IMG/VR virus record: IMGVR_UViG_3300032304_002285
Coordinates: 64,001 to 128,000 of that record
Reading direction: 5' to 3' (one strand)
Source: a virus
Length of the DNA stretch: 64,000 nt
The notes under the pieces are model-generated. The model did not search any database and was not told the origin of the DNA. It saw only the letters and a program-made list of their open reading frames with translations. Position 1 is the stretch's first letter, and every line of letters starts with the position of its first letter. Positions 3,795 to 51,100 of the stretch are shown here, piece by piece. A program made the position numbers and the translations under genes.

Positions 3795-3869
3795 TGCGGG
3801 ATATATCAGTGGTAGATTGCTAGCCTCATAAGCTAGATGTCGTGGGTTCGAGTCCCACTCCCGCTACCA
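3795..3869 (+). tRNA. tRNA-Met(CAT); fMet/Met/Ile2 identity unresolved
   Basis: Cloverleaf with anticodon arm CTAGC-CTCATAA-GCTAG, GGTTCGAGTCC T arm and encoded CCA. It has a 1:72 mismatch but lacks the three G-C pairs typical of initiators. Confidence 0.9.
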
Positions 3870-3879
3870 GTTTGAGATT

Positions 3880-3954
3880 CGGGTTGTCGTTTTAACATTT
3901 AAGACACAAGCCATGGGGCTTGAGATGCTGGTGTAAATCCAGCCGACTCGACCA
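3880..3954 (+). tRNA. Degenerate tRNA-Pro(TGG)-like gene
   Basis: Acceptor CGGGTTG/CGACTCG + A + CCA. T arm GCTGG-TGTAAAT-CCAGC. Anticodon arm CAAGC-CATGGG-GCTTG has a 6-nt loop. The D loop lacks GG. Confidence 0.55.
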
Positions 3955-3960
3955 AGTGTT

Positions 3961-3982
3961 GTTCTTTCAAAACTGAATAGTT
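3961..3982 (+). promoter_or_regulatory. rrn boxA/processing-like motif, copy 1
   Basis: GTTCTTTCAAAACTGAATAGTT, 6 nt upstream of tRNA-Ile. Recurs at 4864 and 8441. Confidence 0.55.
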
Positions 3983-3988
3983 CTTTTT

Positions 3989-4062
3989 CGGCATGTAGCT
4001 CACTTGGTTAGAGCACCACCCTGATATGGTGGGGGTAGAAGGTTCGAGTCCTTCCATGCCGA
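3989..4062 (+). tRNA. tRNA-Ile(GAT), CCA not encoded
   Basis: Acceptor CGGCATG/CATGCCG. Anticodon arm CCACC-CTGATAT-GGTGG. Followed by A-CTT. Confidence 0.9.
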
Positions 4063-4078
4063 CTTATTTTCCCTGAAT

Positions 4079-4153
4079 GCCAGCATAGCTCAATGGTAGA
4101 GCACCTTACTTGTAATAAGGATGTCGGGGGTTCAAATCCCTCTGCTGGCTCCA
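4079..4153 (+). tRNA. tRNA-Thr(TGT)
   Basis: Anticodon arm CCTTA-CTTGTAA-TAAGG, canonical D and T arms, CCA. Confidence 0.95.
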
Positions 4154-4207
4154 TTTGCTTTTCTTGGTTTTAGTTCTATTTTGGGCTAAAGCAAATAGGG
4201 GGCGATT

Positions 4208-4846
4208 ATGAGAAGTGGGATGAGTTGTTCTGATGCTGGTAGGCTTGGTAAAGAAAAATCGCTTGCCTTGCAGCAAGCAATGAAACAAGAAAGAATAAAT
4301 AAATACTTAGAAAATCCGAAATTGTGTGGTACGTGTGGAGCAATCATACCATATAATAAAAGAGTAAATAATTTTTGTTCTTCTTCTTGTTTCGCATGCC
4401 ATAACAACAAACAAAGAAGTCTATTAAATCCTTGTGTTAATTTTTGTATGAATTGTGGTAAGGATCTGAAATCAAAAACTCTTTTGTTTTGTAGTGGAAG
4501 TTGTCATAAAAAACATTCACATAATAAATATATAGAGCGGTGGCTTGCTGGAGAAGAGTCTGGCGGTATTGGCAAGGATAAAGATATTACTAGCCATACA
4601 GTTCGTGACTGGGTTTTTAAAAAAAGTGGTGGTAAGTGTTCAGTTTGTGGCGGAAGTGATTGGATGGGCAAGAAGATGCCTTTGATTCTGGATCATATTG
4701 ATGGTCATTCAAAAAACAATCGTCCTGAAAATCTAAGGGCTGTTTGTGGTAATTGTGATATGCAGTTGCCGACATACAAAAGCAAAAACAAAGGAAATGG
4801 AAGGCATTATAGAAGGGAAAGGTATAAGAATGGATTGAGTTATTAG
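4208..4846 (+). CDS. Free-standing HNH endonuclease with Cys-rich zinc-binding repeats
   Basis: CSVCGG...LILDHIDGHSKNNRPENLRAVCGNCD is an HNH motif. There are several CxxC...FCSxxC repeats N-terminal to it. Confidence 0.9.
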   Translation: MRSGMSCSDAGRLGKEKSLALQQAMKQERINKYLENPKLCGTCGAIIPYNKRVNNFCSSSCFACHNNKQRSLLNPCVNFCMNCGKDLKSKTLLFCSGSCHKKHSHNKYIERWLAGEESGGIGKDKDITSHTVRDWVFKKSGGKCSVCGGSDWMGKKMPLILDHIDGHSKNNRPENLRAVCGNCDMQLPTYKSKNKGNGRHYRRERYKNGLSY

Positions 4847-4863
4847 ATTTGTGATTCAATTTA

Positions 4864-4885
4864 GTTCTTTAGTAATTGAATAGTT
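4864..4885 (+). promoter_or_regulatory. rrn boxA/processing-like motif, copy 2
   Basis: GTTCTTTAGTAATTGAATAGTT, 5 nt upstream of tRNA-Ala. Confidence 0.5.
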
Positions 4886-4890
4886 TCTAT

Positions 4891-4967
4891 GGGGCATTAG
4901 CTCAGTTGGCTAGAGCGTTTGGTTTGCATCCAAAAGGCCATCGGTTCGAGCCCGATATGCTCCACCA
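4891..4967 (+). tRNA. tRNA-Ala(TGC)
   Basis: GGGGCAT acceptor with G3:U70. Anticodon arm TTTGG-TTTGCAT-CCAAA. CCA. Confidence 0.95.
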
Positions 4968-5046
4968 GTTTTTGTATCTTAGTTTATTGCCAAAGATGTT
5001 TGCAAGTTAAGCTATATAGCTTATATTCCTAAAAAAGGAGTAAGCC

Positions 5047-5538
5047 ATGCCAACTTGCAAAAGCTGTGGAGATAGATTTCCTACTTGGATCAAGATAGAT
5101 GGAAAGCAGAGATGTTTAAACAATAGAAAGTTTTGTTTAAAATGTTCTCCATTTGGAAGGCACAATACTAGTCCAACTCTTCATGTAGGATGCGAAAAAC
5201 TTTGCAATAAATGTGGTGAAAAAGATCCCAGTAAGTTTTATGGCAATAAGAGGCATATTTGTGGGAAATGCCATGCCAAGTATACTACTGAAAGAGGAAA
5301 ACGTAAAAAACAATTTGTTTGTGAAAAGCTGGGTGGTAAGTGTGTCTCATGTGGATATGATAAATATGTAGGTTCTCTTGATATTCATCATAAAGATCCA
5401 GCAAAGAAGGATTCTAATTTTAGGTCTAAAAGAGGATGGTCTGAAGAAAGAATATTAAAGGAAATAGAAAATTGTATCTTGCTTTGTCGGAATTGTCATG
5501 CAGCTTTTCATGCTGGAGAGTTAGCAATCGGTGTGTAG
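5047..5538 (+). CDS. Free-standing HNH endonuclease
   Basis: CVSCGY...LDIHHKDP...ENCILLCRNCHAAFH. AAGGAG RBS. The last codons overlap the 5' end of tRNA-Pro. Confidence 0.9.
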   Translation: MPTCKSCGDRFPTWIKIDGKQRCLNNRKFCLKCSPFGRHNTSPTLHVGCEKLCNKCGEKDPSKFYGNKRHICGKCHAKYTTERGKRKKQFVCEKLGGKCVSCGYDKYVGSLDIHHKDPAKKDSNFRSKRGWSEERILKEIENCILLCRNCHAAFHAGELAIGV

Positions 5539-5607
5539 CGCAGTTTGGTTTAGCGCGTCTGCCTTGGGCGCAGAAGGTCGGGGGTTCAAATCCCTCCACA
5601 CCGACCA
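5529..5607 (+). tRNA. tRNA-Pro(TGG)
   Basis: Acceptor CGGTGTG/CACACCG. Anticodon arm TCTGC-CTTGGGC-GCAGA. CCA. Confidence 0.95.
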
Positions 5608-5614
5608 TTTTCAT

Positions 5615-5916
5615 GAGGTTTCCAACTTGTGGCTGATTTCATCTTTTGTTCGGGATGAAGGCACTTACAAGAGGAGAACTGTAAGGTCCCAAGTAGGGCA
5701 GGAAGGGTAAGGCTGGGTCAATGCGGGTAAGAGTTTTCCTAACCGCAGTAGCCCGATATCTGGTAAATTAAAACACTGAACAACCAGATATAAGAGTAAA
5801 ATCTCTTCAATGCGGTGATGAACTTGTTGATCAGAGTTCTGAGCATTGTGGCTGAACAACTCGACTTGTTTGAGATGGGTAGGAAAGGTGGTTCCTTTCT
5901 TCTAGTTGGAAACCTC
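5615..5916 (+). ncRNA. Candidate ~300-nt structured ncRNA of unknown family
   Basis: A perfect 13-bp closing stem GAGGTTTCCAACT (5615-27)/AGTTGGAAACCTC (5904-16) encloses at least 6 hairpins. It fills the gap between tRNA-Pro and tRNA-Arg and has no credible ORF. Confidence 0.65.
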
Positions 5917-5924
5917 TCTATTCT

Positions 5925-5996
5925 GCTCCCGTAGTCTAATGGATAGGCACTTGCCTCCTAAGCAAGTCTATGAGAGTTCGATTCTCTCCGGGAGTA
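5925..5996 (+). tRNA. tRNA-Arg(CCT), CCA not encoded
   Basis: Acceptor GCTCCCG/CGGGAGT. Anticodon arm CTTGC-CTCCTAA-GCAAG. Followed by A-CTT. Confidence 0.9.
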
Positions 5997-6049
5997 CTTT
6001 TTGTCTTTTATATTTATGGTCTAATAGGGATAATATTTTAGGAGAGACC

Positions 6050-6526
6050 ATGAAAAAGAATTTGAAGATTGCTGGTGAGATATTAAAGCTTGCTAAGGGT
6101 TTGGTGGGAATGACCAAACAAGAGGCAGATAAAGTCGCTTTTGTCATGAGGGAGTTTCCTAATCATAATAAAGTGAATGATAAGGTTAGGAAGGAAGTAA
6201 AGAAGTATAAGTTTTTAACCTTGGATAACATTAAGAAGTTTGGTCAATCTGCTTCTTTTATGAGAGGCATTGATGATTGGATAGATTATGTGATTTCGCA
6301 AGGTATGGAAAACGTTTATTCAACTAGCGGTTTTGATTATGAAGATGACAAGGATGTTCTCAATGCAATGAAGCATTATGAAGACATGGATTCTGAATTG
6401 TACAAAAAATCCAGAGATGTTTTAGAGGAAAGAGCGACAGATTTGGCTATAAATTCTGTAATGGAAGCACTCTATCAAGAGATTTCTTCTATTGAAAAGG
6501 CCATAGATAGGTCCAAAAAGTTATAA
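6050..6526 (+). CDS. Hypothetical protein with shared N-terminal leader (KIAGEILKLAKGLVG)
   Basis: Start re-assigned to ATG 6050 behind AGGAG, because the longer track ORF overlaps tRNA-Arg. Confidence 0.75.
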   Translation: MKKNLKIAGEILKLAKGLVGMTKQEADKVAFVMREFPNHNKVNDKVRKEVKKYKFLTLDNIKKFGQSASFMRGIDDWIDYVISQGMENVYSTSGFDYEDDKDVLNAMKHYEDMDSELYKKSRDVLEERATDLAINSVMEALYQEISSIEKAIDRSKKL

Positions 6527-6532
6527 TTAGTT

Positions 6533-6606
6533 GCGGGTTTAGCATAGTGGTAATGTGCCACCTTGCCAAGATGGTTACGCGGGTTCGACTCCCGCCATCT
6601 GCTCCA
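6533..6606 (+). tRNA. tRNA-Gly(GCC)
   Basis: Anticodon loop TTGCCAA, T arm GCGGG-TTCGACT-CCCGC, TCCA end. Confidence 0.9.
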
Positions 6607-6616
6607 AGGTTTTTAT

Positions 6617-6694
6617 TCTCCGGTAGCTCAATTGGCCAGAAGCACTTCACTCTTAATGAAGGGGTTGGGGGTTCAAGTCCCTCCCGGAGAACCA
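6617..6694 (+). tRNA. tRNA-Lys(CTT)
   Basis: Anticodon arm CTTCA-CTCTTAA-TGAAG. CCA. Confidence 0.95.
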
Positions 6695-6708
6695 ATTTTT
6701 GTTTGTAT

Positions 6709-6785
6709 GCTCTGGTAGCTCAATTGGTTAGAGCACCAGCCTTTTAAGTTGGTTATTGGGAGTTCGAGTCTCCCCCAGAGCACCA
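6709..6785 (+). tRNA. tRNA-Lys(TTT)
   Basis: Anticodon arm CCAGC-CTTTTAA-GTTGG. CCA. Confidence 0.95.
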
Positions 6786-6792
6786 ATTTTAT

Positions 6793-6866
6793 TCCCTCGT
6801 GGTGTAATGGTAGCACGAAACACTGTTAATGTTTCTGTCTTGGTTCAAATCCAGGCGAGGGAGCCA
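6793..6866 (+). tRNA. tRNA-Asn(GTT)
   Basis: Acceptor TCCCTCG/CGAGGGA, G73, loop CTGTTAA, CCA. Confidence 0.95.
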
Positions 6867-6869
6867 AAT

Positions 6870-7010
6870 ACCTACATGCTCAATTGCCAGTCTGACGCAT
6901 GAGGTTTTAATGACTGGCTAAAGTCTGGGTGTATTAGGAAACTTACGGTGATGGAACCCAGAACAGAGGGTAAAGCCTCTGCCAAAACTTCAAATAAAAG
7001 GTTTTGGTAA
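6870..7010 (+). ncRNA. Candidate structured RNA (four consecutive hairpins)
   Basis: GCCAGTC/GACTGGC, TCTGGGT/ACCCAGA, CAGAGG/CCTCTG and CCAAAAC/GTTTTGG lie between tRNA-Asn and tRNA-His. Confidence 0.45.
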
Positions 7011-7034
7011 ACCGTTTTAGAGATTTCTATGGAT

Positions 7035-7110
7035 GGTGGTTTTGTTGTAAAGGAAGCATGGATGGTTGTGAACCATCAGGTGTAGGGTTCAAGTCCCACA
7101 TTCCACCCCA
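7035..7110 (+). tRNA. tRNA-His(GTG), weak acceptor and T stems
   Basis: Anticodon arm GATGG-TTGTGAA-CCATC. G-1/C73-compatible ends and CCA. Some mismatches in the acceptor stem. Confidence 0.8.
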
Positions 7111-7130
7111 AGTTTTTAGCGTAGGTGTTT

Positions 7131-7207
7131 GGGGGTATAGCTCAATTGGCCAGAGCATCGGTTTGTCACGCCGAAGGTTGCGGGTTCGATTCCCGCTACT
7201 CCCGCCA
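7131..7207 (+). tRNA. tRNA-Asp(GTC)
   Basis: Anticodon arm TCGGT-TTGTCAC-GCCGA, G73, CCA. Confidence 0.95.
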
Positions 7208-7216
7208 GTTTTATAA

Positions 7217-7293
7217 GGGATTGTAGCTCAATTGGATAGAGCATCTGATTACGAATCAGAAGGTTGGGAGTTCAACTCTCCCCATTCCCACCA
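7217..7293 (+). tRNA. tRNA-Arg(ACG)
   Basis: Anticodon arm TCTGA-TTACGAA-TCAGA. CCA. Confidence 0.95.
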
Positions 7294-7298
7294 GATTT

Positions 7299-7370
7299 GT
7301 CCCGTTCGATCAATGGTAAGGTCATTAGGTTCTCAGCCTAGGGATAGCGGTTCGACTCCGCTACGGGATA
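7299..7370 (+). tRNA. tRNA-Glu(CTC), CCA not encoded
   Basis: Acceptor GTCCCGT/ACGGGAT, loop TTCTCAG. Followed by A-CTT. Confidence 0.9.
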
Positions 7371-7386
7371 CTTTAAGAAGGGATTT

Positions 7387-7460
7387 GACCCGTTGGAGGA
7401 AATGGATAACTCACTTGGTTTTCATCCAAGAGATTAGCGGTTCAACCCCGCTACGGGTCA
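7387..7460 (+). tRNA. tRNA-Glu(TTC), CCA not encoded
   Basis: Acceptor GACCCGT/ACGGGTC. Anticodon arm CTTGG-TTTTCAT-CCAAG. Followed by A-CTT. Confidence 0.9.
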
Positions 7461-7467
7461 CTTTAAC

Positions 7468-7718
7468 GCCACTAAGGGACTAGGTTGCAAGTAGTCCAGA
7501 GTGGAAATCATCCAGGATCTTGGATAATCTCTTTACATAGGGATTATAGAAGAGAATGGGTGTAGTCGGAACTTGTGGGCAGGAAAGTTGGGCATACTCT
7601 TCGCCATCCGACTCTAAATAATTCACGTAATGTCACGAAAGCAGGGTACGGCTGTATAGCCCGATGGAGATTGTCCTGCTTGCTGGAGGGTGATGGTCCT
7701 AGCCCCTCCAATTTTTTT
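7468..7718 (+). ncRNA. Candidate ~240-nt structured RNA ending in a terminator hairpin
   Basis: Stems GGACTA/TAGTCC, ATAATCTCT/AGGGATTAT, AGTCGGA/TCCGACT and AAGCAGG/CCTGCTT, then TGGAGGG/CCCTCCA + T7. Confidence 0.45.
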
Positions 7719-7737
7719 CAAAACTTTTTTAGGATCT

Positions 7738-7769
7738 TTGGATTTAGAAGTAGTTCTGGGTGATATAAT
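7738..7769 (+). promoter_or_regulatory. Bipartite promoter motif, copy 2
   Basis: TTGGATTT...GGGTGATATAAT upstream of the 7806 ORF. Confidence 0.6.
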
Positions 7770-7805
7770 GATGTAAAGAGAACGTAGTGAGAAGGGGATT
7801 CGAGA

Positions 7806-8084
7806 ATGAGTGAAAGTGTTGAAGATCTGAAGCGTCAGGTTGCCCAGTGGAAATCGGTTGCGGCTTATCTGGCTGAGTGTCATGCTGCTTCTGCTGAGAC
7901 TGTTGCTGAGCAGAAGAAGTCTTCCAAGTATGAGAAGAAGCGCCATGCTGAGATTTGCAAGAAGGCGGCTATGATGTTGAAGCATGGGGATCTTGTTGGG
8001 GTAGTTGATCGGAGGTATGCCAAAGAAGGTTTCATTGAAGTGATTGAGCGTTGTGAGTTGGCGAAGGTTGAGTGTGAGAAGTAA
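7806..8084 (+). CDS. Hypothetical protein
   Basis: 92-aa ORF behind the promoter motif with a GAAGGGG RBS. Helical and coiled-coil-like. Confidence 0.7.
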   Translation: MSESVEDLKRQVAQWKSVAAYLAECHAASAETVAEQKKSSKYEKKRHAEICKKAAMMLKHGDLVGVVDRRYAKEGFIEVIERCELAKVECEK

Positions 8085-8095
8085 GTTTTGATAGT

Positions 8096-8169
8096 GCAGG
8101 TATCGTATAGTGGCAATACCCTAGTTTTCCAAACTAGCGCGGTGGGTTCGATTCCCACTACCTGCTCCA
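8096..8169 (+). tRNA. tRNA-Gly(TCC)
   Basis: Anticodon arm CTAGT-TTTCCAA-ACTAG. TCCA end. Confidence 0.95.
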
Positions 8170-8181
8170 AAGGTTTAAGAT

Positions 8182-8328
8182 TGGTCGGCAAGGTTTGGAT
8201 GTTCTGTGAAAGCTGACACTTGACTGTTATCAGATAGGATCGCAACCTGTTTGAGTCAAGATGCCTGGGGAACAGGCTTCAGGCGGAACGCAAGAATATC
8301 ACGGGTTCAAATCCCGTCCGATCAACCA
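8182..8328 (+). ncRNA. 147-nt tRNA-shaped RNA with a ~70-nt structured insert at the anticodon position
   Basis: Acceptor TGGTCGG/CCGATCA + A + CCA. T arm ACGGG-TTCAAAT-CCCGT is identical to that of tRNA-Leu(TAA). Variable-arm-like GCG-GAA-CGC. Internal stems CTTGACT/AGTCAAG and GCCTG/CAGGC. Confidence 0.65.
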
Positions 8329-8332
8329 ATTT

Positions 8333-8417
8333 TGAGGTCTTAATCGTACGGTGTTGAGCAGAACACAGAGGCGATGAATCCCATAGAACTGCTAATTCTA
8401 TGATGGGAAAGACTTCA
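8333..8417 (+). ncRNA. Candidate three-way-junction RNA with complementary (kissing) loops
   Basis: Closing stem TGAGGTCTT/AAGACTTCA. Hairpin loops GAGCAG and CTGCTAA are complementary (AGCAG/CTGCT). Confidence 0.5.
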
Positions 8418-8440
8418 TCTAAGTTTTGAGTAAGAGGTTA

Positions 8441-8462
8441 GTTCTTTAAAAATTGAATAGTT
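8441..8462 (+). promoter_or_regulatory. rrn boxA/processing-like motif, copy 3
   Basis: GTTCTTTAAAAATTGAATAGTT, 4 nt upstream of tRNA-Val. Confidence 0.55.
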
Positions 8463-8466
8463 CTGT

Positions 8467-8543
8467 GGGCAGTTAGCTCAGTTGGTTAGAGCATTTGGTC
8501 TACACCCAAAATGTCGGGGGTTCGAATCCCTCACTGCCTACCA
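8467..8543 (+). tRNA. tRNA-Val(TAC)
   Basis: Anticodon arm TTTGG-TCTACAC-CCAAA. CCA. Confidence 0.95.
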
Positions 8544-8554
8544 TTTTAAGTATT

Positions 8555-8639
8555 GGCCGGGTGGCGAAAAGGCAGACGCAACAGACTTAAAATCTGTCGG
8601 ATTTTATCCGTACGGGTTCAAATCCCGTCCCGGCTACCA
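8555..8639 (+). tRNA. tRNA-Leu(TAA)
   Basis: Anticodon arm ACAGA-CTTAAAA-TCTGT, long variable arm, CCA. Confidence 0.95.
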
Positions 8640-8642
8640 ATT

Positions 8643-8860
8643 TCAAATAAGTGGTCCCTGCTTGATCGTCCCAGTGATAAAAGCAAAGATCATTAAAAAT
8701 TGCTGCCACTTATTTGAGAACTTTTCGGCTTTCTTGTAAAGCCGATGGTGGAGGCGGTTAGGGAAACCTAATTGCCCTAGCGACACATGCTGGACTAGTG
8801 AGGCTGTAGTCTCATGAAACAAGTTGTGTGGCTTTCCGGTAAGAAGTAACCGGGCTTTCG
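8643..8860 (+). ncRNA. Candidate structured RNA(s) between tRNA-Leu and tmRNA
   Basis: 12-bp perfect stem TCAAATAAGTGG/CCACTTATTTGA, TCGGCTTT/AAAGCCGA, GGCGGTTAGG-GAAA-CCTAATTGCC and further hairpins. Confidence 0.45.
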
Positions 8861-8867
8861 TTCAATT

Positions 8868-9271
8868 GGGCCTGACATGGTTTCGATCAAGTGAATGAGG
8901 GTTAGGATTGCATGCAGAGGATGATCGTTGGCCTCTTAAAACTTCGATCAAGTAAGTAACTGCGGAAACTCTTGAGTTCCCCGCTATGCCCATTGCTGCC
9001 TGATCTAGGGTAGTAAAGGGTATGGTCTAAGCCATCAGCAAAGTCTATAAGGCTGATGGGGTTGTCTTAATGATTCGCTCTTGAGACACACAGAATGATA
9101 GGCTGGCTTCAAGGTGATGCCGGATAGCTAAGAAGCGAGAGTTCTGACGGCTGGATGCGCTTAACCTGCTGTGAGGGGAAAAGGCATTGAGAAAAACAAA
9201 TCACAGACAAGCATGTAGAGTCTTGCCGGAAAGCATTTGAGACCGGGGTTCGACTCCCCGCAGGTCCACCA
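8868..9271 (+). ncRNA. ssrA: tmRNA
   Basis: 5' GGGCCTGACATGGTTTCGA. 3' T arm GGTTCGACTCC followed by CAGGTCC-A-CCA with a G3:U70 pair. The tag ORF at 8962-9003 follows TAACT and encodes AETLEFPAMPIAA*. Confidence 0.92.
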
Positions 9272-9278
9272 CAAACAT

Positions 9279-9319
9279 AGGGATATCAAGGAGTTACGGC
9301 TTCTTGGTATCCCTTTTTT
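9279..9319 (+). terminator. Intrinsic terminator after tmRNA
   Basis: AGGGATATCAAGGAG/CTTCTTGGTATCCCT followed by a T run. Confidence 0.75.
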
Positions 9320-9344
9320 ATTTCCCAGGAATTCTTTAAATGTT

Positions 9345-9372
9345 TTGGATTTTCGAGATTGTTGGGTAATAC
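9345..9372 (+). promoter_or_regulatory. Bipartite promoter motif, copy 3
   Basis: TTGGAT-N16-TAATAC(AT). Confidence 0.65.
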
Positions 9373-9421
9373 ATGGATGAAAAAATAATTTACTGTAAGA
9401 ATTTGTGGAGGGTTATTAGGG

Positions 9422-9880: not shown

Positions 9881-10498
9881 ATGTTGAACATTTGCTTGTT
9901 GAAAATCTTGGATAAAAACAATCCGACTCCCGCTATTGATGCATTGATGAAGGTTGGATTGAGCAATGTTGAGGCTCAAGATGCTGTTGTTGAGCTTTCG
10001 GGGTCATTTCTTTCTTTGGTTGCTGTTAGGACTGAAGATATCTGGCCTGTTGATTTGAGTGAGTTTTTCGTTTTTGAGTTTATTCAAAGGGTTGAAATTA
10101 CTCTTGAGACAGCTTTGTTTCCCAAGGAAAAGATTCATGGGATTCAGGCTATCCGTGCTGCCACGGGAATGGGCTTGGTGGATTCCAAGGATACGATTGA
10201 GAATCTTTTTATGGGAGTGCATACCAAGATTCAGTCTAAGCCTGAAGAGGTTGAGAATTTGAGGAAATGGTTTACTCTTACTGCTGAGGAGTTGGGTCCG
10301 GTTCCTCAGCCTTATGTTCCTGGTCGGGTTGTTCAAAAAAACACGATTAGCCATTGTGTTGGTAGTAGTCATAAAGAAGAGGCAATGGAGCACATGTCTG
10401 CCTTTGCCAAGGAGCTTTTGGATGAAAAGAAATGGGAAGCTGCTCAGAACATTTGCAACTTGTTGAGCATTTTGAAGACTGTTGAAGAATATCAATAA
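9881..10498 (+). CDS. Ribosomal protein bL12 (L7/L12) CTD-like domain protein, paralog 1
   Basis: EKIHGIQAIRAATGMGLVDSKDTIE resembles the bL12 CTD pattern KI.VIK.VRA.TGLGLKEAK.LVE. The C-terminal helix pair is shared with the paralogs. Confidence 0.7.
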   Translation: MLNICLLKILDKNNPTPAIDALMKVGLSNVEAQDAVVELSGSFLSLVAVRTEDIWPVDLSEFFVFEFIQRVEITLETALFPKEKIHGIQAIRAATGMGLVDSKDTIENLFMGVHTKIQSKPEEVENLRKWFTLTAEELGPVPQPYVPGRVVQKNTISHCVGSSHKEEAMEHMSAFAKELLDEKKWEAAQNICNLLSILKTVEEYQ

Positions 10499-10512
10499 GG
10501 AGCATTGAGGAA

Positions 10513-11100
10513 ATGAAGAGGATTCGGCTAGGTTTTATTAAGCATACTTATAGTTCTCAGGCTGCTATTGGCGCTCTTGAGGTGAACGGTGTGGTTCGAG
10601 AGCAAGCCAAAGAGGCTGTTGCTTGTATGATTAAAGGGATTAGGTCTTTTATTGTTACGACTAATGACAAGTGGGTAGCTGATTTGAATGAGTTTTTTGA
10701 TTTTGAGTTTGTTGATAAATATTATGTTTCTCTTATCAAGGTTTTCTATCCCAGCCAGAAATTTGAAACCATCAGGAGTCTTCGGGCTGCTACTGGTTTG
10801 GAGTTGAAAGAAGCCAAGGAAGTTTATGAGGCGGTTCTGGGTGGGGGAACGAAAAGGATTGAAGTTAACCCTGATGTTGTGGATGATTTGAAGAAGTGGT
10901 TTGATATTATTTATGAGCAATATGTTATTAAATCGGAAGAATTGCCTGCTGTTGTGAGTCCGGTTGGTAGTAATAAGGATTTGGCGATAGAGCATCTTTC
11001 TTCTTATGTCAAAGAGCTTCTTGATGACAGGAAGATGATGGCTGCAAAGAGTGTGTGTAATCTTTTGGGTATTTTGAAGAATGTTGAGGATTACCAATAA
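10513..11100 (+). CDS. bL12 CTD-like domain protein, paralog 2
   Basis: QKFETIRSLRAATGLELKEAKEVYE. C-terminus ...CNLLGILKNVEDYQ. Confidence 0.7.
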   Translation: MKRIRLGFIKHTYSSQAAIGALEVNGVVREQAKEAVACMIKGIRSFIVTTNDKWVADLNEFFDFEFVDKYYVSLIKVFYPSQKFETIRSLRAATGLELKEAKEVYEAVLGGGTKRIEVNPDVVDDLKKWFDIIYEQYVIKSEELPAVVSPVGSNKDLAIEHLSSYVKELLDDRKMMAAKSVCNLLGILKNVEDYQ

Positions 11101-11116
11101 AAAGCTTGTGAATGGT

Positions 11117-11144
11117 TTGGATTTCTGTCTTTTTTGGGTAATAC
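11117..11144 (+). promoter_or_regulatory. Bipartite promoter motif, copy 5
   Basis: TTGGAT-N16-TAATAC(AT). Confidence 0.65.
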
Positions 11145-11185
11145 ATAGATGTCAATAAGGATTGAGAACAAAGGAGATCGGCAAA

Positions 11186-11758
11186 ATGGCTAGTGTGACT
11201 TTGAAGAACATCAAGGGTGGGATTTCCATGAAGGATGCGGAGTTGGCTCTTTGTGGGGCTGGTGTTAGTAATTATCAGGCGGAACAGGCTGTTGCTAATT
11301 TGTCCAGGAATGTTCCCAATCATTTTGTGGTTGAGACCAATGATCCTTGGGGTGTTAATCTTTATAATTACTTTGATCTTGAGCTTAGTCAGGCTGTGAG
11401 TGTTCGTTTGCATCGGATGTTGTTTCCTGGGGAGAAGATTGCCACCATCAAGGAGCTTCGGGCTGCTACGAATATGGGCTTGAAGGATTCCAAGGACATT
11501 GTTGATGCGGTTCATGTTGGGGATTCTCGGATTGTCAATGTGATGAGTGTTGATCGTATTAATAAATTGAAGGACTGGTTTGATCTTAAGGAAGTTTCTC
11601 CGAATGGCTCTTCGGTTCAGGTTGGAAACAACAAAGAGGAAGCCATGAAGTATATGGCTGCTTTTGCCAAGGATCTTTTGGATGAGAAGAAGTGGGAGTC
11701 TGCTCAGAACATTTGCAATTTGCTGAGCATTTTGAAGACGGTTGAAGAATATCAATAA
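11186..11758 (+). CDS. bL12 CTD-like domain protein, paralog 3
   Basis: EKIATIKELRAATNMGLKDSKDIVD. Start set to ATG 11186 behind AAGGAG. The C-terminal ~35 aa are nearly identical to paralog 1. Confidence 0.7.
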   Translation: MASVTLKNIKGGISMKDAELALCGAGVSNYQAEQAVANLSRNVPNHFVVETNDPWGVNLYNYFDLELSQAVSVRLHRMLFPGEKIATIKELRAATNMGLKDSKDIVDAVHVGDSRIVNVMSVDRINKLKDWFDLKEVSPNGSSVQVGNNKEEAMKYMAAFAKDLLDEKKWESAQNICNLLSILKTVEEYQ

Positions 11759-13611: not shown

Positions 13612-13815
13612 ATGAGCTATCGTCCCAATGTAACGGATAAGAGTCAGAACGAGTTAGAGAGTGCTGCTTTTGAGGGTGGTATTCCTGTTCATGTTGATCA
13701 GAAGGTAGTTGTTGATGTTAAGGGCAAGGGTGGTGCTGAGAGGAAGATTGGTGGGGTTATTGTTTCTTGGAAGGACAATCCTGGTAAATTTATGGACAAC
13801 GTTGGGAAACCATAA
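13612..13815 (+). CDS. Hypothetical protein
   Basis: 67-aa ORF with AAGGAG RBS. Confidence 0.6.
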   Translation: MSYRPNVTDKSQNELESAAFEGGIPVHVDQKVVVDVKGKGGAERKIGGVIVSWKDNPGKFMDNVGKP

Positions 13816-14064
13816 ATGAAAACATTTCTTGTTGAATTGGTTCTTGGCTTATTGGGGAAGTTTATCGGTTGGCTTTCCAATAAGAAGAAGGAGGCGGATA
13901 AGAAGACGGTTGATTCTCAGGATCAATCTATTAAATCCGTTGGGGAATCAATTAAGAAGGAAGATGAAATTAGGAAGGAGCAGGAAAATGTTGACAAGAA
14001 TCCTTCCGATGTTCGGAAAGAGGATGGTTCTATTGATGTTAGCGGTTGGAATGCTGGGAAGTAG
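13816..14064 (+). CDS. Putative inner-membrane spanin (Rz-like)
   Basis: N-terminal hydrophobic segment LVELVLGLLGKFIGWL followed by a charged coiled coil. Its 3' end overlaps a lipoprotein gene. Confidence 0.55.
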   Translation: MKTFLVELVLGLLGKFIGWLSNKKKEADKKTVDSQDQSIKSVGESIKKEDEIRKEQENVDKNPSDVRKEDGSIDVSGWNAGK

Positions 14065-27052: not shown

Positions 27053-30000
27053 ATGGCTGGAGTTGAAGACTTCAAAGATCTTTCGGATGCTGTTGTAGAT
27101 AGTGGCAACAGAATGCGTTCATCTTTGTCTGAAGCAGTTGGTGCTGCTCGGGAGATGGATCGTGTTCTTGAGGCTGTTTCTAAACAGCAAACAAGATCCT
27201 TGAGGGTTTCTTCCAGCTATGATTCGTCAATTAAAAGTACTGCTGTTCAGCTTAAGCAGATAAAGAAGGGTGCTGCTGGGGTTAGAGATACGATTCGTGC
27301 AGCAACAGCAGCGTTTACTTCTGCAAATAAGGCTTTGAAGGATTTTAATAAGTTAACGGAAGATTCTGTTGATGAATTAAAAGAGATTTCCAAGGTTGAT
27401 CTTTCGCTATCTGGTCTTGATTCTGCCTCAAAAAATATGTCTGCAATGGCAAAGGCGGCTTTGGAATTAAACAAGGCACAGAAGGGATCTGTAGCCATTT
27501 CAAGACAGTATGAATCGACAACCAGAGATCTTTCTGAAAATCTTTTGAAGATTGTTGGTTCTTTAAAGAGTGCTGCTACAAATATTCGTTCCTTCAATCG
27601 GGAATTAAAGTCGGGGAAAAAGCTTGGTGAGTCTTTTAGGGATTCATTGGGTAATATGAATTTTGAAGGAAAGATCAGTTTTTCAGTTGATGATTCTAGT
27701 TTGGCAAGTGTTCAGGACGTGATTAACAATTTACAAAAAGAACTTTCTGCTGATTTGAGTGTTGATCTTGGGGGTGGAAAGAAGAGTAAGGAAGAAGTTC
27801 TTACTGAAAAACATTATAAGCTTGATGAAGCGTATGCTAAGAGAAAACTATCCAAAGGAGAGAGTGAATCTATTGAGGTAAGCCAGAAGATATTGAGAGA
27901 GCAAATTCGTTCAAGGAAATCAGAAGGGATTTCTGCTACTGCTGCTGGCAAGTCTTTAGATGCAGCAAAAGTACCAAAATTAGAAGGTTCTGATTTTTCC
28001 AAGCCTAAAGGTTTGTCTCTTGATTATTCGATGTTTGATAAGGTTATTGCTCAATTAACCAAGAATAATCGTTTTACAAAAACAATGGGTAGGGACTCAT
28101 CTACAACCTCTAAAGACATTGGAGCAATGGCAGATGAGGCTTTAACCAAGGGTTCTCTTTATACACATGATGCTGTTTTGGAAAACCTGCTCAAGAAGCA
28201 AATTGACATTTTAAATAAGCAGGTTGATATAGAGAAATCTGGCCCTCAGAATTCCGCTTCGATTACTCGCCAGATAGACTTGTCGGCAGAGCTTGCCAAA
28301 TTCAAGAAGATGTTGTCTTCCTTGGATGATTTGGGGGCTGGGGTTCAGACAAAGGTTCGTCAAAGGATTCGTCGTAAGAAGAATTCAATGTCAGCCGAAG
28401 ATGCTTTTTCGGATGTGGTTCCTTCTTTAAAGGGTGAGTTGGATGAGGCTGGGAAAAAATCAAAGGGTGCGGCTACTGCTGATTTAGTTCCCAAGGAATG
28501 GGATAAAGAAATAAAGAAGATCAATAAGGGGATGCTTGTCTTAAAAAATACCATGAAGAATTCATCTTCGTGGTTTGAGATGGAGCATGCTAAGGAGAAG
28601 TTAGAAGAGCTTGCTGTAGAAGCTCAGAATCTTAGGTCTTTCAAGGAGATAGTAAAGGACTTTGATGAGGCTGAGCTTGCTGAATTAAGATTGGCGATTG
28701 CTACTGGGAAACTCAATGAGAAGATGGTAGAGATCATTGGCAATAAAGATGAATTTTCGGATGTGTTCAACAGTCAGGCGGAAGCGGCAAAGGCTGCTGC
28801 TGAATCGGATTCATCTTTAGAGAAAGAGATGAATAAGAAGTTTAGTGTTATGGGGAAATTGAATAAGAAGTTTGAGGAGGGAAAAGAGGAGGCAATTAAA
28901 TTTACTGGTGGATCTACGATGGCTGGTGGCGCAATGGCTGCTGGTGGTCTTGCTGCTTTATTTTTGGCAAAGGAATTGGGGGAGCTTGCTGAAAAATACA
29001 AAGAGGCGGCGATTGGTCTTTCTGAGTTTAACGTTGAAATGGATGCTCAATCTACAAAAGCTTTTGGTTCTGGTGCAACGGATACAGCATTTAAGAAAAT
29101 AAGGAGTGAGTTGCATTTAACCAAAAAAGAAGCTGGTGGGTTTTTCGATGTTTTGACTGAAGGATATCTTGGAGGAGTTGTTAGTGTTCAGAAGTTGGTT
29201 GCTGCTGGTAATCAGTTAAAGCATACATTTGGAGGAGATCAGACAAAAAGGCTGAAGGAGTATGTAGAATTACTTAAAGAAATTCCGACGATTGAAACAG
29301 ACTTGTCTATTTCTGCAAATTCGGATGACAAGACTGCTGCTTTGTTTGCTTTAGCACAAAAGGGAAAAATCAGCACTGTTATGGAATTACAAGCTGCTGG
29401 TTTGGCTGGTGGCGTAAAGACAATGGATCGAGCTTCAAAAGAAGATGTTAAGCTTTTAAATGCTGCTCATTCTACAGAGAAGGCGGTACAAGATATAAAA
29501 GACGCCATGTTGAATAAGTTTTTTCCGACATGGGGACCTCAATTTGCTGCCATTACAGAAAACACTGCTGAGATTTCAAAGTTGTTATTGAAGGTTGTCG
29601 TTCTTGCAGGAGCAATGAAGGCTTTTGGGGCTATGTCAAAGCTTGGAGGTATTTCTGGTATTGCAGGGAAGATGGGAATGGGTGCTGCTGCTGGTGGTGC
29701 TCCTGGGGCTGCTGGTCTTGCTGCTGGGGTTTCTGCTAAGGCGTTTGGAGCATTAAATGTAGCACTTGGTTCTTTTGCAACAACAGTGGCTTTGGCTGGT
29801 GTTGCTTTTGGGGTGGCTGGACATCTTGTTCAAAAATCTGCTGACAAATCGGAAGAAGCGGGGGATACAGTTGCAGCAGAACAGAAAAGATTTAGTGCTG
29901 GAATATTAAAAACAACTGCTACTATTGCAACTTTTGCTGTGATTGGGTCTTTAGTTCCTGTTATTGGAACGGTTGCAGGAGCCCTTGCTGGTTTGGCGGT

Positions 30001-48117: not shown

Positions 48118-51100
48118 ATGTCTAGAATGTGGGTTCGCAATGATGGCTTTTTAATTATTGAATGTGATTATGAGCAACGGAATTTGGTAAAAGAGATAGG
48201 TGGGAGATGGGATGTAGTAGAAAGGGCTTGGGTTGTTGCATTTAGTATTTCCAATGTGGAATATTTAGTTGACGAGATTGATTCTTTAACGGTTGATCAG
48301 TCTGTTGAAGATAAGCTGCATCAACAGATAGAAAAAGAAGACAAGCTAAATAAAATCCGGGAAATGTCCAAACAGGATGTTCCGGTTCGTCTTCTTGTCC
48401 CTGGTCTTAAGGAGAATTGTAGACTCTATAATTACCAAAAACTGGGTGTTGTCTATTCTTTAACAAATGCAGAAGGGGTATTAATTGCCGACGAAATGGG
48501 TTTGGGAAAATTTTGTGCTATAAACACCCCCGTATTAACAGCTTATGGCTGGCAACCAATTGGTTCTTTGAAGGTCGGGGACATGGTTTATTCGAGGGCT
48601 GGAACCCTTAGCCGGGTAAATGGAGTTTATCCTCAGGGTGTGAAAGAATTACTGAAAGTAACTTTTAGTGATGGGTTTTCATGTGAGTGTGGGTGGGAGC
48701 ATCTTTGGATAGCCCAGACGGACAACAATGCGAAGAGGAAGCAGGGGTGGAGAGTTCTCGACACTCGACAATTATTTGGTGACTTACACTACAAGGATAA
48801 AAGGGCCAAGTGGCGGATACCCTTGGTCGAACCAATCGCCTATAACACTAAGACGTATATCATACCACCATATCTAATGGGAGTGTTGCTTGGGGATGGT
48901 TCCTTGACAGATGGAGTAACCTTTGTTCCTGGGGATGATGAAACTCCATTTCTTGTACAGAAGGCTGTACCTCCGGGTTATAGCTTGCATAAGAATGCTG
49001 ATTATGGAACGTCAACTCGGTATTCTATTGTTTATAAAGGCAGTGGATACGAGAACCCACTAAAAACTCAAATTGTTAAATATGGACTAAATGTTACTGG
49101 GGAAAGGAAGTTTATTCCTCATGAATATCTTGAAGGAAGCATAGAACAACGGAAGCAGTTGTTGGCTGGCTTATTGGATACAGATGGTTCTGCAATGAAA
49201 GCTAGGACTAGGTTTTCAACAGTATCGGAACGTCTTGCTGATGACGTTATCGAGCTTGTTCATAGTCTGGGTGGAATGGCTACTAAGTCTCTTGTTCCTG
49301 GCAGATTAAGGGTAAGGGATGGGAAGCAGGTTCAGGAGCAGGATTGTTGGCAATTGGTTGTTAGAACTAGTTTTAATCCATTTTCCCGTCCATCTTCTAT
49401 TGCGAAGTGGAAGAGATCATCAAAACTTGTCAGGAATATTGTAAGTATTGAGCCTGTACGGTATGATGATGCGGTATGTATTGCTGTTGATTCCAAAGAT
49501 CATTCGTATGTTATTCAGCATCATATTGTAACACACAATACCCTGCAAGGTCTTGCTATTTCGTTGGTTAGGAAGAATAAGAACGGGGCAAAAAAGTGTC
49601 TTATTGTCACTCCTGCTTCTTTAAAGTACAATTGGCCAATTGAAATCGAAAAATTTACAGATGAGAAGTTTGTGGTAATTGATGGGAGTCCAGAAGAGAG
49701 GATTGCTCAATGGATGCGGGATGACGTTTATTATTACGTTGTTAATTTTGAGCTTATTCTTGAGGATTTGTTTGGAGGTAGGGAATATAAAGAAGATCCA
49801 GATGATGATGAAGAGAAGACTGCCAGAAAAAAAGAATTAAAAGCTAAGGCTCAATTTAGGAAGAAAATTTTAAGTTCTGTAAAAGAACGAGATTGGGATA
49901 TGATCCTTGTGGATGAATCCCATGCCCTTAAATCTCATGCTAGCAAGAGAAGTAAGTGTATAAAGCAATTGAAGAGTAAATTCCGAGTGGCTTTAACAGG
50001 TACTCCGATGGATGGGAGATTAGAAGAGTTACATTCAGTTATGGAATTTGTTTATCCTGGGTTGTTGGAATCAAGAACCAGATTTCTTCAGAAGCATGCC
50101 ATTACTGATTTCTGGGGAAAGGTGACTGGGTATAAAGATATTGATGATGTAAAGAAGCGGATAGCTCATTGTTTTATTCGCAGATTAAAGGCTGATGTTT
50201 TAAAGGACTTGCCTAATAAAATCTATCAGAATAGGATTGTGGTTCTATCAAAGGAAGAAGAAAAAATCTACAAGGCGTTAGCTTCTTCGGGTCATGTAGC
50301 AACCCAAGATACTGAAGCCATGGTTACTGTGATCAGATGTAAGCAGTTTTGTGATTATCCTGGATTAATTGGTGAGAATTGCAAGGTGAATTCTAAGCTT
50401 GAGGCTTTTAAGGAGATTTTGGATGAGGTAATTATTCAAAATGGGCATAAGGTTCTGGTTTTTAGTCAGTATAAGCAGATGATAGATGTTTTGGTGAAAG
50501 TAATGGAAGAGATGAATCTGAAATATCTTCGGATTGACGGAGATACACCAAAGCAGCTTCGAGCGGGGATGCAAAAGCAATTCAACGAGGATAAATCAAT
50601 AGATTCGATGATTGGCACAGAGGCTATGTCTACTGGTTTGAATTTCACCTCTGCTGATTATGTAATTAATTATGATGACAATTGGGCTCCTGCTATTATG
50701 GCTCAGAGGGAGGATCGGTGTGTTATAGAGGGTCAGTATGTCAATACGGATCGCGGGATGGTTAAGATTGAGGATGTTAAGACTGGGGATATGGTTTTAA
50801 CTCATCGGGGTAGATATCGGAAGGTATTAGACGTATGGAATAAACTTCATAGATCTAATACAACTGGTGGATTAACAACGGAAATCAAATACAGAAGATA
50901 TGGCTATCCATTAAAAGTAACCCATGATCATTTAGTTTTGATCCTTAGGGGTGAAAAAATAGATTGGATGGAGGCAGTTGATGTCCGTCCTCGTGATTTT
51001 TTATTATCTCCTATTTTGTCTGAAGAAAGAAATGACCCTGGTGAATTGGAATTTCCAGAGGAGTTTTCTTTTAATAAGATGCAGAGATTAAATGGTTCTG

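Follow-up and report, generated by a model that had tools for sequence, protein, structure and literature searches.

The question raised by this locus is what kind of RNA is specified by a gene that has the ends of a tRNA and a body unlike that of a tRNA. The element, of 147 nucleotides (nt), lies at positions 8182-8328 on the plus strand of a 64,000-nt stretch of phage DNA, referred to here as the window, which corresponds to bases 64001-128000 of the 180,758-nt IMG/VR record IMGVR_UViG_3300032304_002285; positions are those of the window unless given as genome positions, which are those of the whole record. It starts 12 nt past the tRNA-Gly(TCC) gene (8096-8169, plus strand), which is recognized by both ARAGORN and Rfam. 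The original prediction had described it as a tRNA-shaped RNA in which a structured domain of about 70 nt takes the place of the anticodon loop, and had proposed either a chargeable mimic of tRNA or a tRNA with an intron removed by proteins. The present analysis led to a different picture of the body: as modelled, the element is a real tRNA-derived gene with a body of the type found in the tRNA-like domain (TLD) of transfer-messenger RNA (tmRNA), and not a cloverleaf carrying an additional domain in its anticodon loop.

Ends and predicted fold of the element

The acceptor stem, A73 and encoded CCA that had been noted earlier were all confirmed. The 5' strand UGGUCGG (8182-8188) pairs at all seven positions with the 3' strand CCGAUCA (8318-8324), the third pair (3:70) being G·U, and this 3' strand is continued up to position 8328 by the discriminator base A73 (8325) and the CCA end (8326-8328), after which comes ATTTT as after other tRNAs of the array. 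The T arm ACGGG-UUCAAAU-CCCGU (8301-8317) is canonical, with a stem of 5 base pairs (bp) and a 7-nt loop, and the reported 19-nt identity to tRNA-Leu(TAA) proved exact: the T arm and the next 2 nt (element positions 120-138) match positions 8612-8630 (genome 72612-72630) of that tRNA at 100%. Compared with tRNA-Leu, the acceptor 3' strand has another base at four of its seven positions, and despite these differences all seven pairs of the element are still formed. A G3·U70 pair together with A73 is common to the element, the phage tRNA-Ala and the phage tmRNA. Among the hallmarks of a tRNA, the element has the 7-bp acceptor, the 5-bp T stem, a loop of the UUCNANN type, the discriminator base and the CCA, while direct reading of the sequence found neither U8 nor A14. 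No tRNA was called at this position by ARAGORN at its default setting, nor by the Rfam tRNA model RF00005 even at E ≤ 10, and the element is not a standard tRNA.

The fold was computed from this one sequence with the acceptor and the T arm enforced, and reached -51.7 kcal/mol compared with -40.7 kcal/mol for the earlier cloverleaf model. Directly after the acceptor strand, the 9-nt linker CAAGGUUUG (8189-8197), an analogue of the D loop containing GG, was single-stranded in both the centroid and the constrained fold. The following segment 8198-8208 (element 17-27) was predicted to pair with 8289-8300 (element 108-119), with pair probabilities of 0.94-1.0, in a long helix that adjoins the T stem with no spacer; in the single-sequence minimum-energy prediction this helix is extended by GCUGA (8212-8216, element 31-35), which pairs with 8279-8284 around one bulge. 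Hairpin P3 (8219-8260) has an outer stem of 6 bp and an inner stem of 9 bp, separated by an asymmetric internal loop of 5 nt, and is capped by the 7-nt loop AUCGCAA, its pair probabilities being 0.95-1.0 except for 0.62 at the first pair of the inner stem, and hairpin P4 (GCCUG-GGGAA-CAGGC, 8263-8277) has 5 bp and a pair probability of 0.63. All these features are on the plus strand, and from 5' to 3' the predicted order is acceptor, linker, interrupted long helix, three-way junction with P3 and P4, and T arm.

This fold retains the two insert stems that had been proposed, CUUGAC/GUCAAG and GCCUG/CAGGC. The other internal arms of the original prediction did not form in it: with the acceptor and T arm enforced, the pair probability was 0.0 for the D-like stem as well as for the UGAA/UUCA 'anticodon stem', and 0.01 for the GCG-GAA-CGC 'variable arm'. 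Nor does a domain of about 70 nt sit inside an anticodon loop, as element positions 17-27 pair with 108-119 instead; because this helix lies beside the T stem, the domain is predicted to replace the D stem and the anticodon arm and not the anticodon loop. The modelled layout, i.e. acceptor, unpaired D-loop analogue and a P2a-like helix by the T arm, is the topology of a TLD. The whole element was more stable than its shuffled versions (z = -2.9), none of 200 shuffles folding as well. When the inner 112 nt were shuffled with the ends fixed, a z of -2.6 was obtained and 4 of 500 shuffles were as stable, while a helix of at least 7 bp adjoining the T stem was seen in 19 of the 500.

Comparison with tmRNA and other tRNA-like RNAs

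When the 161 nt from 8175 to 8335 were searched against 4227 Rfam families, tmRNA (RF00023) was the best plus-strand family, with a match that spans exactly 8182-8328 (13.8 bits, E = 0.00048 for that stretch). In the alignment the acceptor, D-loop region, P2a and T arm of the model fall onto matching parts of the element, the linker corresponding to the D loop of tmRNA and the 17-27 helix to P2a, and 76 nt of the element stand in place of 294 inner model positions. Leaving the tmRNA gene aside, nothing in the record matches the tmRNA model better than positions 8270-8328, the 3' part of the element (22.5 bits). Conserved tmRNA motifs beside P2a are UCGAC and GAC. The linker segment GGUUUGGAU is similar to GGUUUCGAU, which occupies the equivalent position in the tmRNA of this phage, and for the D-loop/P2a motif GGNUUCGAC the element reads GGUUUGGAU, the phage tmRNA GGUUUCGAU, and the reduced tmRNA of mycobacteriophage DS6A discussed below GGUCGAC; before the T stem the element has AUC where the tmRNA motif has GAC.

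The element shares with the TLD of bacterial tmRNA (RF00023) the acceptor, the D-loop analogue, the P2a-like helix, the T arm, G3·U70, A73 and CCA, whereas it has no pseudoknots, no resume codon and no tag open reading frame (ORF). The ARAGORN tmRNA search made no call at the element and found no tag ORF, in agreement with what had been stated earlier on this point. The sole closed frame, read by hand at element positions 29-73 (KLTLDCYQIGSQPV), is enclosed in tight helices and does not end in a hydrophobic ...AA. Without a tag frame and without pseudoknots, the element is not a full tmRNA.

A reduced form of tmRNA carried by a phage has been described. Mycobacteriophage DS6A encodes a 'TLD only' tmRNA, and a molecule similar to it strongly inhibits tmRNA, perhaps through titration of SmpB, according to statements in two later papers that both cite Mao et al. 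2009 (PMC4131195; PMC11915505). We located the DS6A gene at positions 28478-28560 of JN698994 (83 nt; 43.2 bits on RF00023). Like the element, it is phage-encoded and has an acceptor with G3·U70 and A73, a T arm, no tag ORF, a linker beginning CAA(U)GG (CAAUGG in DS6A), no D stem and a helix where the anticodon arm would be. It differs in keeping the GUCGAC motif, which the element is without; the element in turn has no spacer between helix and T stem, a 60-nt branched tip, a complete tmRNA nearby and a tmRNA score of 13.8-22.5 bits. A reduced tmRNA devoid of coding sequence is also known from jakobid mitochondria (PMC11915505). It has tRNA-like ends and no tag reading frame, as the element does, although its model (RF02544, 77 positions) gave no match at the element and the mitochondrial forms are much shorter.

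Two further RNAs with tRNA-like parts were compared. T4 species 1 RNA (rnaC) is a 139-nt stable RNA of the T4 tRNA cluster whose role is still unassigned (PMC3014915). Its gene likewise lies in a tRNA cluster, and the RNA combines a stem resembling an acceptor and a T arm of canonical form with two long hairpins that replace the normal arms; unlike the element, it has mismatches in the acceptor, no encoded CCA and another branch layout, and a model built from the element (R1, described below) found nothing in T4. YrlA (RF02553) is similarly a non-decoding RNA with a tRNA-like module. The ends of YrlA form a Ro-binding stem and not an acceptor with CCA. The suggestion that the element might be Y-RNA-like was not upheld, as RF02553 did not match at the element and no gene for a TROVE/Ro protein was found in the record, which represents about 51% of the genome.

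Phage record, RNA operon and search for relatives

The record, about 51% complete and of 40% G+C, contains 31 tRNAs by ARAGORN in two clusters, plus a complete tmRNA and an amber-suppressor-type tRNA(CTA). For its DnaE-type polymerase, IMG/VR contains a single relative at 52% identity (G001), the rest being at most 41% identical, and identity to the polymerases of cultured phages is no more than about 34%; judged by sequence, it is an orphan large (jumbo) phage. Within the window the tRNA array extends from 3795 to 8639, with HNH endonuclease genes interspersed among the tRNAs, and is followed by the complete tmRNA (8868-9271, plus strand; tag AETLEFPAMPIAA; identified by ARAGORN and at 112.1 bits by Rfam), with which the element is predicted to share a transcription unit. 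An intrinsic terminator at 9279-9314 on the plus strand, with a 16-bp stem followed by a T run, marks the end of this RNA operon. A weak terminator-like site (8835-8854) was the only one that the terminator scan listed between the element and the tmRNA, and no strong terminator was detected in the operon upstream of 9279. Besides TROVE/Ro, genes for SmpB, for alanyl-tRNA synthetase (AlaRS) and for an RtcB or Rnl-type ligase were looked for in the same half-genome and none was found.

Searches for relatives of the element were carried out at the level of sequence, pattern, structure and neighbouring genes. With 8000-9400 as the query, blastn on 50,697 phage records returned ordinary tRNAs only, an exact 31-mer of the insert was not found in IMG/VR, and the neighbouring proteins had no relatives there. 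The insert sequence is unique in the genome, and it is therefore not a repeat or small mobile element. A two-anchor pattern of D-loop analogue and T loop gave 15 matches in IMG/VR, all by chance, and a similar pattern matched 25 times in metagenomes, where the four top matches were tRNA-fMet genes with a hairpin upstream. Model R1, a single-sequence model of the element with a self-score of 184.8 bits, was run on 52 phage records, including G001 and T4, and on other loci retrieved; apart from the element itself the best score was at most 27.8 bits, and the matches that were looked at consisted of ordinary tRNAs, a 3' fragment of a tmRNA or tRNA and an RNA on metagenome contig L124. A tmRNA 3'-end pattern led to four contigs, none of which has the element, two conserved spacer blocks had no match in IMG/VR, and a 25-mer from T arm and acceptor had none in 185,579 genomes.

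An exhaustive HMMER search with the 92-amino-acid protein encoded upstream yielded 161 relatives, only one of which lies within a tRNA array, namely that on the 1.2-kb contig L139; relatives of a 118-amino-acid protein were found in gene-dense contexts with no RNA genes. L139 shares with the phage the 92-amino-acid protein (60% identity), tRNA-Ala (95%) and the structured spacer (78%). Past the gene for the 92-amino-acid protein it carries a decayed tRNA-Gly-like stretch, recognized manually and not called by ARAGORN, then tRNA-Val, a class II tRNA and tRNA-Ala. The 1169 nt of L139 that were examined hold no copy of the element and have other genes in the corresponding place, so the position of the element is not conserved in the nearest kin available.

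The scan for T arms outside annotated tRNAs revealed three further aberrant genes in cluster 1, outside the window, each with a 7-bp acceptor, a T arm and a non-canonical body. The first (genome 11066-11160) has an acceptor, a D arm, a T arm and an irregular 36-nt arm; the second, of 131 nt (genome 11843-11973), forms long hairpins in addition to its 7-bp acceptor; and the third, of 93 nt (genome 12771-12863), lacks a D arm, contains a loop with GUA (Tyr), ends in ACCA ahead of a terminator and scores 13.9 bits on the tmRNA model. Such genes cut both ways: they may reflect diversification of mimics, or they may be relics generated in endonuclease-rich arrays. In the same region a gene for a PD-(D/E)XK homing endonuclease (genome 12142-12540; PF11645, 68 bits) directly follows tRNA-Tyr, and after it comes a stretch (genome 12534-12584) that is similar to a tRNA in its variable arm and 3' end and closes with CCACCA; from its sequence this stretch looks like a homing or duplication scar. 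Directly after tRNA-Ser, a sub-threshold match to the F. prausnitzii HDV-like ribozyme was recorded (genome 12689-12757; 33.4 bits versus a gathering score of 44).

Several other features were observed in the course of this work. The spacer between tRNA-Leu and tmRNA (8640-8867, 228 nt) is strongly structured (-80.2 kcal/mol, z = -4.7) and belongs to no Rfam family, an overlapping weak match to permuted tmRNA excepted; the 78% identity of its 3' 140 nt (8715-8866) to L139:780-920 includes, over 37 predicted pairs, two compensatory and five one-sided compatible changes, the apical hairpin being variable. Downstream of the tmRNA are tandem ORFs (9881-11758), of which that at 9881-10498 and one 190-amino-acid paralog carry a bL12 C-terminal domain (PF00542, precomputed); among 5.8 billion proteins the similar-length matches to this bL12-like protein were the phage's own two paralogs only, i.e. 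the query and one at 47% identity. Two inserts resembling inteins, which match LAGLIDADG/Hom_end and Hint/Intein_splicing, apparently split a SNF2-family helicase gene at 48118-52005. The tRNA with a CUA anticodon for the amber codon (genome 5701-5775; labelled 'Pyl' by ARAGORN; Rfam tRNA 59.6 bits) hints, on the basis of its sequence, at recoding or suppression of TAG in this phage. A weak tRNA at 7036-7107 (Rfam 37.4 bits), which ends in CCCA and has a poor acceptor with 5 of 7 pairs by our registration, is not called by default ARAGORN and is possibly the tRNA-His(GUG) that appears, with no coordinates listed, in the anticodon tally of ARAGORN at the relaxed ps90 setting. By the same kind of registration, tRNA-Gly(GCC) (6533-6606) has G3·U70 and two imperfect acceptor pairs; its Rfam score of 50.2 bits is the second-lowest among the tRNAs called by ARAGORN in the window.

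Among the contigs retrieved, L124 carries at 13646-13859 an RNA-like element of 204-214 nt whose ends comprise an acceptor of seven perfect pairs (GGGACCG/CGGTCCC), A73 and CCA, together with a T arm; a short helix adjoins the T stem, and the interior of about 160 nt has multiple hairpins. This RNA is not called by ARAGORN, scores 11.4 bits on the Rfam tmRNA model and, judging from these features, may be another structured RNA with tRNA ends. In an unrelated IMG/VR phage (L108:1644-1992 and 2656-2682), some 650 nt with an ORF, read by eye, separate a tmRNA gene from a second tmRNA T arm, acceptor and CCA, and on L111 a similar ORF precedes a 3' end like that of tRNA-Ala or tmRNA. At L139:612-699, a tRNA of 88 nt has the long variable arm of a class II body and an anticodon loop that we read as UGU (Thr).

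Possible functions of the element

As to what the RNA does, we lean, tentatively and with less than even confidence, towards a processed, non-decoding and probably alanine-accepting mimic that acts on the axis of SmpB, AlaRS and EF-Tu. The element would be co-transcribed with its neighbours, from tRNA-Gly through tmRNA, and would be released by RNase P and 3' trimming, whereupon the host AlaRS would probably charge it. It can neither decode nor tag, as a normal-length anticodon arm and a tag ORF are both lacking. It would most likely serve as a mimic that occupies the factors recognizing acceptor or TLD ends, i.e. SmpB, AlaRS and EF-Tu, and such occupation would modulate trans-translation, as has been reported for TLD-only tmRNA constructs. 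In favour of this reading, the ends and the context of the element match those of the neighbouring tRNAs and no strong terminator separates it from the tmRNA; the acceptor is fully paired despite its divergence from tRNA-Leu; in the model the TLD helix is favoured over the cloverleaf alternatives, whose pair probabilities are at most 0.01, and the stability lies above that of shuffled sequences; and the TLD-only tmRNA of DS6A offers, by analogy, a precedent.

A number of observations weigh against the mimic reading. The predicted structure derives from a single sequence. The full-length tmRNA score is far under the RF00023 gathering score of 47, the ordinary tRNAs of this phage score 15-17 bits on the same model, and the DS6A control scores three times as high as the element. 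At the places of the UCGAC and GAC motifs of the tmRNA consensus, the element is predicted to have plain Watson-Crick pairs. Its T arm matches tRNA-Leu and does not match the tmRNA of the phage, the G3·U70 pair recurs, by a crude registration, in tRNA-Gly(GCC) and tRNA-Gln, and the operon also encodes a complete tmRNA, 540 nt further downstream, an arrangement that would be odd for an inhibitor of tmRNA. Finally, the element is lacking from the 1169 nt of L139 examined and no homolog was found in any collection searched. The earlier interpretation as a whole is partly supported, and its half that proposed a tRNA mimic or mini-tmRNA fits: the TLD topology, G3·U70, A73 and the rank of tmRNA as best plus-strand Rfam family speak for it, although the match itself is weak and the G3·U70 pair is shared with other tRNAs.

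A serious rival, if in our estimate a rather unlikely one, is that the element is a functionless relic, that is, a tRNA gene of this endonuclease-rich array of rapid turnover, remodelled by insertion or recombination, whose transcript would still be cut by RNase P because the acceptor and T arm are intact. The phage has at least three other aberrant tRNA-like genes, HNH and PD-(D/E)XK endonuclease genes lie among its tRNAs with duplicated tRNA 3' ends close by, and the 19-nt identity to tRNA-Leu is compatible with recent duplication or conversion. In L139 the gene order is reshuffled, and both the tRNA-Gly-like stretch and a tRNA-Asn-like sequence appear decayed when read manually, ARAGORN calling neither; the failure to find the element in L139 or a homolog elsewhere fits this explanation as well. 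A relic is harder to reconcile with seven intact acceptor pairs, an intact T arm and CCA, with flanks of the insert that pair as a long helix by the T stem, as few inner shuffles do, with the stability of the whole RNA above that of shuffles, and with an insert that occurs only once in the genome.

It is likewise rather unlikely, though worth consideration, that the element is a stable tRNA-like RNA with another role, independent of SmpB and trans-translation, such as a decoy or sponge for host factors attacking tRNA ends or bodies (CCA-modifying toxins, tRNA nucleases), or a processing or scaffold RNA resembling T4 species 1. T4 rnaC, of similar length and likewise in a tRNA cluster, has a comparable T arm and hairpins, several tRNA-like genes of this phage have their anticodon arms replaced, and a weak RelA/SpoT-like domain is encoded 7 kb downstream of the element (19.2 bits, below the cut-off). 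Against such roles stand the lack of any R1 match, and hence of rnaC homology, in T4 and the lack of a tRNA-repair ligase in the record. Neither of the 7-nt loops that can be drawn, AUCGCAA of P3 or CUGACAC of the deletion variant considered below, is known to match the target tRNAs of anticodon nucleases, which also counts against such a role. That the element represents a new class of phage RNA, in which an alanine-accepting acceptor/T-arm module is fused to a branched effector domain and which, as distinct from tmRNA, the DS6A form and T4 species 1, enters or blocks the quality control of host translation (SmpB/tmRNA, EF-Tu, AlaRS) or the immunity directed against tRNA, is a further reading that we consider improbable.

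The second proposal of the original prediction, an intron-containing tRNA spliced by proteins, fared much worse; a decoding tRNA formed by removal of an intron of about 56-70 nt is in our judgement very unlikely. Every contiguous segment of 30-99 nt within element positions 8-119 was deleted in silico, and of the 3395 variants 180 were called as tRNAs by ARAGORN at its default threshold, 6 at ps105 and none at ps110, a setting passed by 29 of the 31 real tRNAs of the genome. The best variant, lacking positions 40-95, was called at default and at ps105 as a marginal tRNA-Val(GAC), a tRNA that the phage otherwise lacks, and its 7-nt loop CUGACAC has U33, A37 and the anticodon GAC; but its D stem is poor, its anticodon stem contains an A·C mismatch, and a variable region of about 20 unstructured nt is left on a class I identity. 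The absence of U8 and A14 and of RtcB or an RNA ligase in the record speaks further against an intron-bearing tRNA. In its intron mode ARAGORN did not call the element at the default threshold, and the 'tRNA-SeC(tca) with a 70-nt intron' that it reported at the relaxed ps90 setting was rejected, as under this setting the phage tmRNA too becomes an intron-bearing tRNA-Lys. The insert is, as previously noted, far below the size of a group I intron, and no Rfam group I intron matched at the element; known tRNA introns of bacteria and phages are group I introns and much longer. A tandem pair of tRNAs and a ribozyme or riboswitch were also rejected, the element having one T arm only and no Rfam match of the latter kinds.

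Large phages carry tRNA arrays and sometimes a tmRNA, and the non-decoding tRNA-like RNAs that accompany them are almost unstudied: the role of T4 species 1 RNA has been unassigned since the 1970s, and the TLD-only tmRNA of DS6A is known mainly from one study. The element would provide a tractable case in which an alanine-type acceptor, a TLD-like topology and an extra domain occur beside a complete tmRNA, and could reveal whether phages use mimics of tRNA ends for tuning ribosome rescue or for absorbing attacks on tRNA. If it is instead a relic, it would be an example of how endonuclease-rich tRNA arrays make processed junk RNAs that are missed by gene finders.

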